From the NCBI GenBank assembly GCA_963664225.1, contig OY760937.1, positions 2,176,001-2,240,000 of the forward strand: 64,000 nt of DNA, read 5' to 3'. Source of the DNA: Verrucomicrobiia bacterium. Its GTDB lineage: Bacteria > Verrucomicrobiota > Verrucomicrobiia > Limisphaerales > UBA1319. The notes beneath the pieces are model-generated. The model was not told the origin of the DNA. It made no database searches and saw only the letters and a list, made by a program, of their open reading frames with translations. A program made the translations under genes and the position numbers. Positions 453 through 12,810 of this stretch are shown here, piece after piece. Numbering within the stretch: the first letter of the stretch is position 1; each line of letters starts with the position of its first letter.

Positions 453-1505
453 TCAGAAGAAGTAGCCGAGGGAGATTGAGCCGAACCCTTCATGTCCCTG
501 CTGACCCTCGAATTCCTTGCCCAAGAAAATGTAGGTGAAGGAAGCCTGGAAGCGTCGATTGCCCACACACATGCCGACGCCAGTCATTGGCACAAAGAAC
601 TCCTTGTCCACACTCGGGCTGTTCCTAAACGTATTGCCATCAAGCGTGATGTCCCGCAGCACCAGGTTGGCAAAGCTGCCGCCGAAAACCGAGAACCCCC
701 AATCAGAAGACCGGCTCAGCGCGTCGCGCCTTGGCGGCGGCATGTGCCCCATGTCGCGCACCAGTGTCGGGCCGAAATCATCGGGCATGTTGTAGCCGGC
801 GCGCACCAACCCCCCAACCTGGCCCTGGGTGAGGACATTGCCCAGCCATCCGCCGCCCACAGGCAATGCTTGCAGGGACCATTGTTCACGGTCGCCTGTC
901 AGTTGGAACCTGTGCCGGTATTCGTAGGCGAGGTTAAAGATGGGCTCGTTGTGCAATTGGTAACCCCAGCCTTCCGACGTGTCGTTGCCGATGAGACGAT
1001 GCACTGTGTTCTGTGATTCCTCCGCCAATGACCCGGGGCCGACAACGCCTGTCATGAACTTCAGCCCGTGATAAGAGTTCTCCTTCTCCACATGCAATGT
1101 AAGCCCAAAGGAGAGAATTCCGGCATAAGGGCGATCATTTGGGTCCGGGATGCTCCGTTGCGTATCTGCCGGAGTGAACATTCCTTGCGTCACGTCGTAA
1201 CCCACTGTGCGGCGTCCTTCACCCCACGACAGCCAGTTCGCGAATGGGTCTATCCAACTGGGACCAGTGTGGGATACGCCCAATGAGACGCCATCGGTGT
1301 AGAACCGGTCCGTTCCGCCAAACGTATCGTTCTCCCAGCGCACTGACATGGCCCATTGCCGCGGCTCAGCGGCGAGTTGACAGGGAGGATTGTTGGTGGA
1401 TTCAGCCATGCCGCCGGCGGGCGCTCCCATCAAAAGGCTCAACACAATCATTTTTGTGCGGTTTATCCGGGAGTGACCTGATGGATGGGACTCGTGTGGT
1501 TTCAT
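453..1505 (-). CDS. Lipid A deacylase LpxR-family (DUF2219) outer-membrane beta-barrel
   Basis: ENDTFGGTDRFYTDG, QGMFTP, DRPYAG, GWGYQLHNEP and DITLDGN motifs; C-terminal Phe. Start codon uncertain. Confidence 0.85.
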   Translation of the reverse strand: MKPHESHPSGHSRINRTKMIVLSLLMGAPAGGMAESTNNPPCQLAAEPRQWAMSVRWENDTFGGTDRFYTDGVSLGVSHTGPSWIDPFANWLSWGEGRRTVGYDVTQGMFTPADTQRSIPDPNDRPYAGILSFGLTLHVEKENSYHGLKFMTGVVGPGSLAEESQNTVHRLIGNDTSEGWGYQLHNEPIFNLAYEYRHRFQLTGDREQWSLQALPVGGGWLGNVLTQGQVGGLVRAGYNMPDDFGPTLVRDMGHMPPPRRDALSRSSDWGFSVFGGSFANLVLRDITLDGNTFRNSPSVDKEFFVPMTGVGMCVGNRRFQASFTYIFLGKEFEGQQGHEGFGSISLGYFF

Positions 1506-1521
1506 GGAGGAAATAGATTGA

Positions 1522-1743
1522 TTATTTAACGCAAAGGTGATCTCGACGTTGATGCTGGTCCGGCGGCATTGACCTCCGCGCTGTGCCCCGTGGTCGGATG
1601 GGACCGAGGGCGACCTGGAACGATTCGCCGGGATGATCGTCACCCTGCGCAGGGTTGTGTTCCCGGGCGGGCTGGTTGTGCCAGAAGGAGCCATACACCA
1701 TGGCCAAAAGGACGGTTCCGATTATGAGAGGAAGCATTGACAT
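1522..1743 (-). CDS. Small single-TM hypothetical protein
   Basis: Hydrophobic N-terminus (MSMLPLIIGTVLLAMVYG); fills the operon gap without overlap. Confidence 0.4.
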   Translation of the reverse strand: MSMLPLIIGTVLLAMVYGSFWHNQPAREHNPAQGDDHPGESFQVALGPIRPRGTARRSMPPDQHQRRDHLCVK

Positions 1744-1748
1744 GGCGC

Positions 1749-2015
1749 TCACTGATTGGCACTTCGATTAGTTGTGGTCTCAGATCCACGCGCAGAAAGT
1801 TGAAAGCGGCTGCCGGTCGTGTTCGGGTCCAGGGGCTTGTGTCCTGGCGGAGGCGCGTGCCGATCGAGATACTCCATGGCACAGGATGGACTACAAAGCG
1901 AAACCCGGCCTTGGGTTCCGGGAAAATGCGCGAACCAATGCTCTTTTACACTACAACCGCAAAAGCAGCAGATTTCGTTTTCCGTGGCGGGTGCGATTAG
2001 AATTTCAGCCTTCAT
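1749..2015 (-). CDS. Small Cys-rich putative metal-binding protein (TRASH/YHS-like spacing)
   Basis: CCFCGC-x19-LCSPSC; ATG at 2015 lies 8 nt after the upstream stop. Confidence 0.55.
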   Translation of the reverse strand: MKAEILIAPATENEICCFCGCSVKEHWFAHFPGTQGRVSLCSPSCAMEYLDRHAPPPGHKPLDPNTTGSRFQLSARGSETTTNRSANQ

Positions 2016-10047: not shown

Positions 10048-10104
10048 GCGGAGGAAGCGCCGGGCGCAGGACAAAATTCTTCAGCATGCCGAAAAAGGCT
10101 TTTA

Positions 10105-12079
10105 GTAGAGTAGGCGAAATGGACGGATTGAATGGCCGTGGCCAATGACCGTCGCATTTCGCCCCTCATCGAACCGGACAGGCGGTTTTCCCGCATCCGG
10201 CTCTCCGGGGATCATACGTTGCATCGCTTCGACGTCATCGTTTCCATGCCGCATATTCCGGCATTTGGTATAAACCATAACGCTCATAGAGATCCTCCTT
10301 GGGGTATGTGGACCATTGCGCCCGACTACATCCGTGTTTGCGCCACAACCATCGTTGTAACTTGCTGCTGACGTATTCGTTCATCTGGCCCATCACCTTG
10401 GTGCTGTTCCCGTAGTGAAAGTAACCCTTCCAACCTTTGAGTTTCTTGTTGAGCTCGGGAATCACCTCTCCGATATCACGCCATAGCGTGCTTCGGTTGA
10501 GTTTCTCCCGAATCCCGTCTCGAAACTTCTTCTGGCTCTTGGGATGGGGTTCCACATGCGGATATTTCCATTTCCCCTTCCCCTGTCGCATTGTTAGCGC
10601 GAATCCCAAGAATTTGATGCCATCCTGGCGGAGGTCCACCAAGCGGGTCTTCTTCTCGTTGAGCACTAACTCGCGTTGCTTCAGCCATCGTTCCAGTCGT
10701 TCCATCAGTTCCCGTCCCTGCCCCGGCTGTCCGAGTATCACGAAATCATCCGCGTATCTCACCATCACGGGTTTGAGTTCGCAGCGTTCGTTGACTTCCC
10801 AATCCAACTGGTTGAGGTATGCATTGGCTAAAATCGGCGATACAACCCCGCCTTGCGGAGTCCCCCGTCGATTCTGACCTTGCCCCCCCTTTGTCCCGCC
10901 TTTCCCTGTGTCGCTTTGCGGTTCATTCACGGGCGCGCGCAGCCATCCTGCGATCAGCTTGAGAATTGTTCCATCGCTGACCCGCTTGGCCACTATGCGC
11001 AACAAACGCCTGTGGGGAATGCTGTCAAAATACCCGCTTAAGTCCGCGTCTATAACTTCGACGCGTCCTGTCAGCGTAGCCTTCTTGATCGCCTCCATTG
11101 CTTGGTGGGCATTGCGTTTGGGATGATAGGCGTAACTGTTCGGATGACTATCGGCTTCCAGAATCGGCAGCAATACAATCACCACCGCTGTCTGCACCAC
11201 CCGGTCTTTCACTGTCGGGATGCCCAGGGGTCGCAGCTTCCCGTCTCCTTTTGGTATATACACACGCTTCACCGGGCTTGGCCGATACTTCTTCGTGCGT
11301 AACTCCTCCAGCAGTTGGTTCCGCCATTGGTCCCAGGCTTCGTCGCTGGCAAGATAGACGTCGCATGTCTGCCCGTCGATCCCAGCCGCGCCATTGTTGT
11401 GCGCCACGGAGGCCATTGCCGTTTCCAGCACGTCCTTCCGCAGCAGTTCTCCGTAGAGGCTGTAAAACCGATACTTCGGCTCAGCCTTGGCTTTGCAATA
11501 TAGCGCTCGCTGCAGCTTTTGAACTTTTATCGGGGTTGTTATCCGTTGAAAAAGTGTTTCCACTCCCTCAAGGCCATCTCCCTGTCCCTCGCTGTTTTGA
11601 TTCGCTTCGATCCAAGTGCCTTCCCTTGGCTCCGCCGGGGTTTTGGTCGCCCCAGCTTCTTCGCTACTATGGAAGACTCCGACTTCTCTGGCTGCCCGTG
11701 CGGCCTCGGAGGGTGTTCCTCCTTGCACCGGCGGTTGAGGCTTTATCGCCCCGCCTCCAGAGATCTCCCAGCTTACCTTGGTTTCCCTTCCTGTCGTGTC
11801 GCCCTCGCTGACTCCGCCGGAATCAACAGCGCCCATTTGACGATTTGATGACGCCGCGTTTCTGCCTTCGCCGTTCGGGTAGCGGCTCGGCTTACCGGTT
11901 ATTTCGGTTTCGGAGCTCATTTGATGAGGTTTACTTTCGTTACGACCCGACAGTTCTTTCAGCGTCCCGCTTGTGGTTCGGCCTCACGGCCTCGTCCCGG
12001 ACGCTGCATTTCGGTCGTGAACCGTCTAATTCGACCGGCGGGACTTTCACCCACGAGGCTACCAATTTCACTGGCGCAC
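10105..12079 (-). mobile_element. Group II intron, full length (1975 nt)
   Basis: 5' end GTGCG at 12079; domain V GAGCCGGATGCGGGAAAACCGCCTGTCCGGTTC right after the RT stop; domain VI ends CCTACTCTAC at 10105; EBS1/EBS2 match the 5' exon. Confidence 0.95.
10235..11920 (-). CDS. ltrA: Group II intron reverse transcriptase/maturase, no C-terminal endonuclease domain
   Basis: RPLGIPTVKDR, DADLSGYFDSIPH, GTPQGGVVSPILAN, RYADD, FLGF, maturase GWKGYF. The real start is probably near 11563. Confidence 0.93.
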   Translation of the reverse strand: MSSETEITGKPSRYPNGEGRNAASSNRQMGAVDSGGVSEGDTTGRETKVSWEISGGGAIKPQPPVQGGTPSEAARAAREVGVFHSSEEAGATKTPAEPREGTWIEANQNSEGQGDGLEGVETLFQRITTPIKVQKLQRALYCKAKAEPKYRFYSLYGELLRKDVLETAMASVAHNNGAAGIDGQTCDVYLASDEAWDQWRNQLLEELRTKKYRPSPVKRVYIPKGDGKLRPLGIPTVKDRVVQTAVVIVLLPILEADSHPNSYAYHPKRNAHQAMEAIKKATLTGRVEVIDADLSGYFDSIPHRRLLRIVAKRVSDGTILKLIAGWLRAPVNEPQSDTGKGGTKGGQGQNRRGTPQGGVVSPILANAYLNQLDWEVNERCELKPVMVRYADDFVILGQPGQGRELMERLERWLKQRELVLNEKKTRLVDLRQDGIKFLGFALTMRQGKGKWKYPHVEPHPKSQKKFRDGIREKLNRSTLWRDIGEVIPELNKKLKGWKGYFHYGNSTKVMGQMNEYVSSKLQRWLWRKHGCSRAQWSTYPKEDLYERYGLYQMPEYAAWKR

Positions 12080-12243
12080 ACCCGAAATCCGAAATAAGAA
12101 TGGTCAAGACGATGCAATGCTTTGAGACAGCCATGATTTGCAATCGGCGAAGGTGTATTAAACCAATACTCCACAGCCGGTTTCAAACCATGGATGGCCA
12201 AATGATTGCGTCAGATGGGCCGTTCCTATTTCGGATTTCGGGT
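12080..12243. mobile_element. 164-bp MITE, copy 1
   Basis: 17-bp perfect TIRs ACCCGAAATCCGAAATA / TATTTCGGATTTCGGGT; TTA on both sides once the intron is removed; near-identical copy at 23902..24065. Confidence 0.9.
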
Positions 12244-12286
12244 TTAACCAACATGGAAGTATATAGGCCGAATGAACACTGTCGGC

Positions 12287-12592
12287 TCAAAAAACTGAAC
12301 GCGCGATCTTCCCTCTCGCCCTGCGACGCACGAGCGGGGAGCGGACAGGATTACTTCTATCCAAACCGTCCCAGCCGCCTGCTTTGATCTCCTTTTTTAG
12401 TTTTGCGGCACAGCCATCTGCTGTCGCATAAGTGGAGTATCGCCGCCGATGGCGGCTGCACGCAGCGTCATAATAAAAAACCATGGAACGGCTTTCCCCG
12501 TCGTGGGTTTCTTTGTAAATGGTGATGTTTGTGGGATCGCCGGTGACATGCACCAGAAACTCCTCTGGTTCAGTGATCGCATTTTTTTTCAT
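12287..12592 (-). pseudogene. Possible truncated N-terminal fragment of an island integrase
   Basis: Starts about 140 nt from the tRNA 3' end and points away from it; ITIYKE...VFYY...RHRRRYST..A is reminiscent of integrase arm-binding N-termini; no catalytic domain follows. Confidence 0.35.
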
Positions 12593-12733: not shown

Positions 12734-12810
12734 TGGAGCGAGCGAAGGGATTTGAACCCTCGACAATCACCTTGGCAAGGTGACACTCTACCAGGCTGAG
12801 TTACGCTCGC
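12734..12810 (-). tRNA. tRNA-Gly (GCC)
   Basis: GCGAGCGTAACTCAGCCTGGTAGAGTGTCACCTTGCCAAGGTGATTGTCGAGGGTTCAAATCCCTTCGCTCGCTCCA: cloverleaf, GCC anticodon, encoded CCA. Confidence 0.97.

Follow-up and report, generated by a model that had tools for sequence, protein, structure and literature searches.

Group II introns are known to hide within other mobile elements, as passages of one report describe (PMC7306698), and the closest described cases come from Sinorhizobium meliloti, for which we draw on passages of two further reports. In strain GR4, the intron RmInt2 was found only within the inverted repeats of the insertion sequence (IS) ISRm17 (Martinez-Rodriguez et al. 2014, PMC4615759). These repeats give RmInt2 two sites on opposite replication strands, and in assays it tolerates reduced pairing of exon-binding site 2 (EBS2) and retrohomes into such a target (PMC4615759). 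In the same species, RmInt1, an intron in ISRm2011-2 (IS630 family), retrohomes at replication forks with a preference for the lagging-strand template, and endonuclease-less introns are described as reverse-splicing into single-stranded DNA at forks (PMC5894124). Members of the IS1380 family, according to passages of a fourth source, carry outward promoters and co-mobilise adjacent DNA (PMC9330008). Here we analyse a 64,000-nt stretch of DNA from a Verrucomicrobiia bacterium (contig OY760937.1 of assembly GCA_963664225.1; hereafter the window), in which a group II intron adjoins a miniature inverted-repeat transposable element (MITE). We put at roughly 85% the probability that this is an endonuclease-less, IIB-like intron, guided by pairing between exon-binding and intron-binding sites (EBS and IBS), that retrohomes to the ends of IS1380-family ISs and MITEs on the lagging-strand template.

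The genome is one 5.78-Mb contig that contains the window (G000:C1, to which all C1 coordinates refer), and it holds 19 copies of the intron that are 100% identical across all 1975 nt. The 5' exon is identical in kind at every copy, reading ...TCGGA(T/G)TTCGGGT, and the 3' exons begin TAA (10 copies) or TTA (9 copies) and are mutually unrelated beyond that. Eight copies adjoin one end of the MITE and five the other, three lie at one end of a 1534-bp IS and one at its other end, and two occupy isolated look-alike sites. With 17 of the 19 copies at element ends and both ends in use, the distribution is of the RmInt2 type, in which copies lie at a terminal repeat of which either end can serve. 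A preliminary description, made from the window alone, had proposed that the intron specialises on this terminal inverted repeat; tabulating the flanks genome-wide bore this out, since the same terminal sequence was found at 19/19 copies, the two look-alikes included. The isolated sites carry 14 to 17 nt of element-end sequence, and neither has a partner arm nearby. The first lies 18 nt past the stop codon of an open reading frame (ORF) of 552 amino acids (aa) and has 14 nt in common with the element end, and at the second, about 16 nt of end sequence adjoin a truncated member of a different repeat family.

The intron RNA pairs with a DNA target of 18 to 19 nt, EBS2 with exon positions -18 to -10, EBS1 with positions -7 to -1 and, tentatively, the A of a candidate EBS3 with the T at +1. 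EBS1, ACCCGAA (11880..11874, minus strand), is perfectly complementary to exon -7..-1 (TTCGGGT), and EBS2, CCGAAATAA (11907..11899, minus strand), is perfectly complementary to exon -18..-10 (TTATTTCGG). The positions of both in loops agree between the Rfam alignment and an RNAalifold consensus of the window intron and six relatives, as the preliminary description had expected of the folded domain I, and the two stretches are the most variable columns of that alignment. In the single-sequence minimum free energy fold, EBS1 stays in a loop and the ACCG of the EBS2 region forms a 4-bp helix with CGGU. That helix takes up 3 EBS2 bases in a fold that is not significant (z = -1.3), and we place little weight on it because the relatives' sequences cannot form it. 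EBS1 matches its own exon with 7/7 Watson-Crick pairs in all six introns of known exon (the window intron, L018, L020, L021, L022, and L007), compared with 2 to 6 of 7 for the exons of the others. At the candidate EBS3 column (11959), an A is present in all six aligned sequences with a 3' exon beginning in T, and a T is present in L022, where the 3' exon begins with A. The target of the window intron also contains a tandem sub-repeat, ATTTCGG, twice.

Occupancy was scored across all 602 genomic TTCGGGT (IBS1) sites. None of the 549 sites with at most 3 contiguous IBS2 bases was occupied, compared with 4/8 of those with exactly 4 such bases and 15/45 of those with at least 5, and every occupied site had at least 4 contiguous IBS2 bases together with a T at +1. 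Since occupancy tracks the contiguous IBS2 bases, EBS2 matters in this genome, and the common 5' exon at 19/19 copies, taken with the confinement of occupancy to sites with IBS2 bases and the +1 T, shows that the EBS/IBS match is not a matter of chance. Measured instead by a 13-nt end pattern, 51 sites are present in the genome, and 19 of these are filled.

These data also bear on a different account, in which the intron would recognise the foot of a hairpin in single-stranded DNA and base pairing would be secondary. Introns of class IIC, which insert after terminator or attC stem-loops, recognise structure in this manner; they have a short EBS1 and no EBS2, and require a stem-loop upstream of the site. 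A single-stranded MITE is predicted to fold into a hairpin of -40.7 kcal/mol (z = -6.6; 0/200 shuffles were as stable) that has the intron at its 3' foot, and a related intron in another genome (G041, described below) lies at the 3' foot of a 75- to 80-nt hairpin in 16/16 cases. However, the four copies at IS ends have their partner repeat 1.5 kb away and the two isolated copies have none, so that 6/19 sites are without a nearby partner arm. The 7-bp EBS1 and 9-nt EBS2 are of the IIB type, unlike those of class IIC, occupancy is predicted by IBS2 content, and the IBS bases would be paired, and hence less accessible, within the hairpin. We therefore regard recognition of structure as unlikely and pairing by EBS1 and EBS2 as the probable basis of target choice.

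The filled ends follow a strand pattern. Because the target lies in both inverted repeats, every integrated element offers two symmetric sites on opposite strands, as the preliminary description had foreseen for each MITE and IS, and across copies both ends are indeed used. Within a single element, though, one end at most is filled: of the 14 MITEs and 5 ISs that retain both ends, 19 elements in all, 16 have one intron, 3 have none and 0 have two. Intron copies are on the minus strand only between 1.66 and 2.19 Mb, and all others are on the plus strand. The dnaA gene lies at C1:2.99 Mb, the cumulative GC skew has its maximum at about 1.25 to 1.45 Mb, and the strand bias of long ORFs is negative from about 1.3 to 3.1 Mb and mostly positive elsewhere. 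With the origin set at 2.991 Mb (dnaA) and the terminus at 1.35 Mb (the skew maximum), both of them inferred positions, 18/26 sites on the lagging-strand template are occupied versus 1/25 on the other strand (Fisher p = 1.1e-6), and moving the origin a few kb further left gives 19/26 versus 0/25. On this placement the intron has both features of an endonuclease-less, fork-using intron, namely, a protein without an endonuclease domain and a bias to the lagging-strand template. By analogy with the described introns of that kind, the pattern fits endonuclease-free retrohoming at replication forks, and priming would then depend on the fork. GC skew itself stays positive between about 3.65 Mb and, across position 0, about 1.3 Mb; it turns weakly negative over the interval 1.3 to 1.7 Mb and remains flat between 1.7 and 3.65 Mb.

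The intron inserts one base beyond the IS end, probably inside a 5-bp target duplication. When the elements are read as CCCG...CGGG, a perfect 5-bp duplication (TTTAA or TTAAA) flanks 18 of the 19 with both ends intact. The first T of this duplication is separated from the rest by the intron, and removing the intron alone restores the duplication exactly in 18/19 paired elements. In a relative's genome (G003), an 86%-identical IS ends ...TTCGGG and is followed by TTGAA in three cases and by CTTAA in two; the base past CGGG varies there, which makes it flank rather than element. Elements of the IS1380 family end in CC and generate 4- to 5-bp duplications. A 3-bp duplication, with the A and T counted as part of the repeat, fits the same data. 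The homing site is 17 nt of element end plus the T/T of the duplication, the slash marking the insertion point. At the window locus, the intron (1975), the MITE core (162) and the duplication (5) add up to the 2142 bases that are skipped relative to uninterrupted paralogues. Joints of 10100 to 12243, considered as an empty site, were rejected as such; they are paralogous copies of the other repeat family that hosts this MITE.

Insertion beyond the element end spares both the inverted repeat and the transposase gene; for the same reason the intron is not carried when the element transposes, and each transposition makes new homing sites. The preliminary description had pictured a retroelement hitch-hiking on transposon ends, and in this respect it has to be amended. 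A rival explanation is that the MITE or IS carried the adjoining intron along by one-ended transposition, as a transposable module. Passages of one report state that DNA beside one end of the IS1380-family elements ISEcp1 and ISPme1 is mobilised through misrecognition of an end further downstream (PMC9330008), and the intron does touch the element end at all copies. It does so, however, at either end of the MITE and of the IS alike, and it also occurs at 2 element-free sites. The 5-bp duplication is restored by removing the intron alone in 18/19 cases, which implies that the element inserted first and the intron later. Moreover, MITE copies diverge from one another by up to 7% but the introns do not differ at all, so that the insertions are separate and recent rather than co-amplified with the MITE, and the strand pattern tracks the direction of replication rather than the orientation of the element. 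Passenger spread with the transposon is thus very unlikely.

The intact element end is also relevant to the proposal that the intron benefits its host by capping transposon ends and limiting the spread of the IS and MITE, and so is not simply selfish. Such a role has been proposed in print for the Sinorhizobium introns RmInt1 and RmInt2, in passages of PMC5894124, and an intron is present at 16/19 paired elements here. Yet an intron placed outside the end leaves the inverted repeat and the transposase gene as they were, with CGGG followed by T or C in G003, and recent activity of the IS is suggested by its five copies, which are 100% identical and of which 2 have entered MITEs. A capping role strikes us as quite unlikely.

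In the reading that we prefer, the target would be the outermost inverted repeat common to the IS1380-family IS and the MITE, plus the T/T of the TTWAA duplication. At each element the end on the lagging-strand template alone would be filled, the transposon would be left intact, and every new transposition would yield fresh homing sites. Six things observed directly in this analysis enter into it: the anatomy of the intron, the identity of the site at 19/19 copies, the positions of the EBS, the covariation of EBS1, the dependence on IBS2, and the strand pattern. Additional observations concern copy number. In a public run of a coded isolate, the intron contig has a depth of 157 and the flank a depth of 8.2, or about 19-fold, and in a metagenome run the intron appears with 7 differences, joined to a MITE end.

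Several points weigh against this reading. The replichores implied by the inferred origin and terminus are very unequal, about 1.65 and 4.15 Mb, and this implies either that they are so in fact or that recent large rearrangements have occurred. The GC skew is flat between 1.7 and 3.65 Mb, and the terminus was fixed after the intron orientations had been seen, the skew maximum and the gene-strand bias being independent of those orientations. One copy, at C1:2986270 (plus strand), 4 kb left of dnaA, is counted on the wrong strand, and the favoured strand has 8 sites that are intact yet unfilled. An 18-nt exon-intron junction gave 17 matches in metagenome contigs, of which 0/17 run on as intron, so that all are chance matches, and no instance of the exact junction came from data other than those of this organism. 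The identity of the 19 copies could in principle also come from gene conversion. Among the five relatives of known exon (L018, L020, L021, L022, and L007), no EBS2/IBS2 match was convincing by eye, so EBS2 rests on the site statistics of this genome and on its loop position, not on covariation; of the covariation between EBS and target that the preliminary description had looked to, the EBS1 part held in 6/6 introns and the EBS2 part did not. Finally, splicing and current activity of the intron are predicted at the level of sequence, and RNA runs screened for the locus contained 0.05 to 0.07 of the sampled words at most.

The host elements are well defined. The MITE, named as such in the preliminary description, has the properties of one: it is 164 bp long, contains no ORF, occurs in multiple copies, has inverted arms (45 nt, 78% complementary), and is flanked by target duplications, which are present in 18/19 paired elements of both kinds. 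A census of the genome gave 19 contiguous copies, 3 that are split by IS insertions, and fragments in addition; the copies are 93 to 100% identical in pairwise comparison. The 1534-bp IS encodes a 473-aa transposase that matches the IS1380-family model NF033539 (227.2 bits versus a cut-off of 180) and PF13701 (2.3e-27). The terminal 13 nt of the MITE and of the IS differ by one mismatch, and both make a TTWAA duplication; the MITE may be mobilised by the IS. The MITE was not found in 12 relatives, all of them draft genomes. Among 40 relatives, the 86% relative of the IS occurred in G003 only, and three other genomes matched 23 to 36 bases (E of about 1e-4 to 1e-3).

Two loci contain nested mobile DNA in three layers (G000:C1:828002-831676 and C1:2984654-2988329); in both, the IS1380-family IS hit the central TTTAA of a MITE and the intron then joined one IS end. 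The third split MITE (C1:264553-266581) is interrupted by an IS1634-family IS. The target of the window MITE is itself a member of another short repeat family (10066-10104 and 12244-12341), of which uninterrupted copies exist, for example, at C1:2939998-2940131 and C1:2353675-2353808. A promoter scan of the MITE region found one sigma-70-like site (12285-12258, minus strand), upstream of the MITE and not inside it, against an expectation of 0.7; this site does not amount to evidence for an outward promoter. A tRNA gene (12737-12810, minus strand; 65.9 bits), whose anticodon loop reads GCC (glycine), and a 101-aa ORF (12287-12592) also lie upstream of the MITE, both in the orientation of the intron; read-through from either could transcribe the window copy of the intron.

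The intron itself is intact and IIB-like in structure and, judged from its sequence, was probably active recently (Table 1). The intron, the MITE, and the EBS matches all lie where the preliminary description had placed them, as determined by minus-strand reading, Rfam, and complementarity. On the minus strand, the 5' junction (12080/12079) reads ...CATTCTTATTTCGGATTTCGGGT/GTGCGCC, with the intron side in longer form GTGCGCCAGTG, and the 3' junction (10105/10104) reads ...CCTACTCTAC/TAAAAGCC, with the intron side in longer form CGCCTACTCTAC. The GTGCG at 12079 and the CTAC at 10105 are the boundaries of a bacterial group II intron (5' GUGYG, 3' AY). The RF02005 match scores 54.9 bits (gathering score, 49) over model positions 1 to 225 of 225, as for a domain I-IV architecture, and the RF00029 match, covering domains V and VI, scores 49.3 bits (gathering score, 40). 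The encoded protein, whose ORF is located in domain IV, contains RVT_1 (1e-34) and GIIM (7.4e-14), matches the group II reverse transcriptase (RT)/maturase model TIGR04416 at 357 bits (cut-off, 300), and has a YADD motif. No endonuclease domain was found in the domain search, which returned only RVT_1 and GIIM, and the protein stops 25 residues past GIIM, in agreement with the earlier suggestion that the intron is endonuclease-less. With these two protein domains only, both RNA models matched, and the boundaries defined, the intron is complete at 1975 nt and without an endonuclease. A regular-expression search of the protein found no match to the class D C-terminal motif LX3AX3PXLF[V/A]HW. In a tblastn comparison with plasmids all matches, rhizobial ones included, were at most 42% identical, so that, as to class, the motif of class D is what has been excluded.

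Table 1. Positions of the intron, its pairing sites and the adjoining MITE in the window
Feature	Position	Strand	Remarks
Complete group II intron	10105..12079	-	1975 nt; 5' GUGCG ... 3' CUAC; 1 of 19 identical genomic copies
Domain I part	11802..12047	-	Rfam RF02005 (group-II-D1D4-6)
Domains V and VI	10105..10205	-	Rfam RF00029 (Intron_gpII)
Intron-encoded protein ORF (RT and maturase, without endonuclease domain)	10235..11563	-	GTG start at 11563 uncertain
EBS1 (ACCCGAA)	11874..11880	-	9-nt loop of GCCG/CGGC hairpin
EBS2 (CCGAAAUAA)	11899..11907	-	12-nt unpaired internal-loop strand
Candidate EBS3 (A), tentative	11959	-	Single covarying case
IBS1 (UUCGGGU, exon -7..-1)	12080..12086	-	Six element-end bases and one flanking T
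IBS2 (UUAUUUCGG, exon -18..-10)	12089..12097	-	Within MITE inverted repeat
MITE, near-palindrome, 164 bp	12080..12243	.	Core CCCG...CGGG 12081-12242; outer A and T may be target duplication
Upstream target-duplication copy TTAAA	12243..12247	-	
3' exon start	10101..10104	-	With 12080, downstream TTAAA copy; 10104 is IBS3 (+1 T)

The start of the RT frame varies among relatives, with GTG, ATG, TTG, and CTG as in-frame candidates. The sole conserved ATG ahead of this frame is out of frame (window 11577-11539, minus strand, and the same region of L018 to L022), and in the window intron and five relatives it opens a 12-codon ORF that closes at a conserved GGATAA. No conserved slippery site was seen that would allow a programmed frameshift from this ATG. 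The genome also contains a second group II intron family (C1:1677049, 2329700, 5161928, and 5604340) of about 1.97 kb with an RT that is 41.7% identical, and a third RT gene at C1:2134896 that is 32% identical; the sites of both are unrelated to MITE or IS ends.

Related introns were sought in other genomes by a scan for RT relatives, with one genome per species, which found 181; the best 80, representing 78 loci, were retained. Among these best 80 of 181, six loci are 67 to 77% identical and all others at most 52%. The six come from metagenome-assembled genomes labelled Rhodocyclaceae, Planctomycetales, Hyphomicrobiaceae, Akkermansia, and Verrucomicrobia. A search with the intron in 40 relatives gave partial matches only, the best being 71% over bases 1 to 508 (G034) and 68% over bases 1393 to 1975 (G005), and no near-identical copy was found among the 40. 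The close relatives occupy different sequences, each with a matching EBS1. The preliminary description had held that close homologues in unrelated sites would speak against specialisation on the repeat; relatives do lie elsewhere, with EBS1 changed to match, and in G041 the site is again a symmetric inverted repeat. The match in G034, L007 (G034:C102, about 1306-2002, minus strand), is a derivative of this intron lineage, about 700 nt long and without an ORF, 71% identical over domains I to III and 84% over domains V and VI, and its own EBS1 matches its own, unrelated exon.

The G041 genome, which holds L021 (RT 75% identical), shows a comparable pattern. The first 30 bases of the intron end 16 different contigs or loci there, and 16/16 of the 5' exons end ...ATCCGTGnnATCCGTGG, which is the 3' foot of a 75- to 80-nt hairpin with 26-nt arms. 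Each arm is built of three 9-mers (ATCCGTGnn three times), and the hairpin sits centrally in a larger MITE-like repeat whose outer ends adjoin variable sequence. Both feet of the hairpin are used: one family accounts for 7 junctions in one orientation and 5 in the other, and a second family for 4 more. The junction loci in this genome are L127 and L131 to L145 on the 5' side and L146 to L163 on the 3' side, and the copies are 100% identical at at least 16 sites. The nearest multicopy relative is thus also located on symmetric inverted repeats of a non-coding repeat, though these are not transposon ends.

Together with the window intron, this relative suggests that targeting of inverted repeats may be recurrent. 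It is possible, at somewhat less than even odds, that an endonuclease-less lineage outside class D repeatedly retargets to the symmetric arms of multicopy palindromic non-coding elements, and the tandem sub-repeats that the two targets contain (ATTTCGG, present twice here, and ATCCGTGnn, present three times in G041) may contribute to recognition. If this were a habit of the lineage, such introns would be obligate followers of DNA transposons, and the symmetry of the target would be the adaptation by which each copy is certain to offer a site on the lagging-strand template. The junction between a MITE or IS end and its duplication arises only through transposition, and its use leaves the transposon functional.

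A standing question is how group II introns persist in bacteria without harming their hosts. Known answers are that they hide after terminators or inside other mobile DNA, and this genome is a clean example of a third: the intron exploits the ends of a transposon family, mostly in its miniature form, without breaking the transposon, so that its host element keeps making homing sites. The 19 identical copies, the base-exact target, the filled and empty sites, and the near-complete strand asymmetry make up an exceptionally clean natural data set on endonuclease-free retrohoming. The pattern of filled ends could mark replication direction where GC skew is uninformative, and the long EBS1 and EBS2 make the intron a candidate for retargeting studies. 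Overall, the evidence supports the interpretation given in the preliminary description once three points are corrected: the transposon is followed by the intron rather than carrying it, only the lagging-strand end of an element is filled, and the strategy has a published precedent.

In light of that precedent, the comparison with known systems can be made at several levels, on the basis of the passages available from each source. RmInt2 and the window intron are both endonuclease-less, are both of the IIB type, and are both found in the terminal inverted repeats of an IS, and in both cases the left and right repeats are on opposite strands, so that one is always on the lagging-strand template (PMC4615759). 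Four EBS2 pairs suffice for RmInt2, and here the occupied sites include some with only 4 contiguous IBS2 bases. RmInt2, however, belongs to class D, whereas the window intron is without the class D motif and its RT is at most 42% identical to that of any plasmid-borne intron. The host elements differ as well, being ISRm17 for RmInt2 and here mainly a non-coding MITE, plus an IS1380-family IS. In the wording of the text RmInt2 lies "within" the repeat, while the window intron lies one base outside the element end. RmInt1 is likewise endonuclease-less, proliferates in a multicopy IS, and has a lagging-strand-template bias, but it has one site inside its IS, which insertion blocks, whereas the window intron has two sites per element and leaves the element intact (PMC5894124). 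The window intron resembles IIC introns, which are found after terminators or attC sites (PMC7306698), in being intergenic, harmless to the host, located at the 3' foot of a stem-loop, and without an endonuclease. It differs from them in having a long EBS1 and EBS2 and in using sites without a hairpin partner. ISEcp1 and ISPme1 belong to the same family as the host IS here, and DNA at their ends can be transcribed from the IS and is sometimes co-mobilised (PMC9330008). Unlike in those cases, the pattern observed for the intron argues against co-mobilisation, and the one sigma-70-like site found is upstream of the MITE only; by analogy, outward IS promoters could nevertheless bear on expression of the adjoining intron. 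Among the titles, abstracts, and passages of the literature that were searched, no description of an intron targeted to MITE ends was found. Homing to the inverted repeats of an IS is already published for RmInt2 and ISRm17, and the concept is therefore not new; the present case adds to that single published example an intron lineage unrelated to it, a further IS family, and MITEs.

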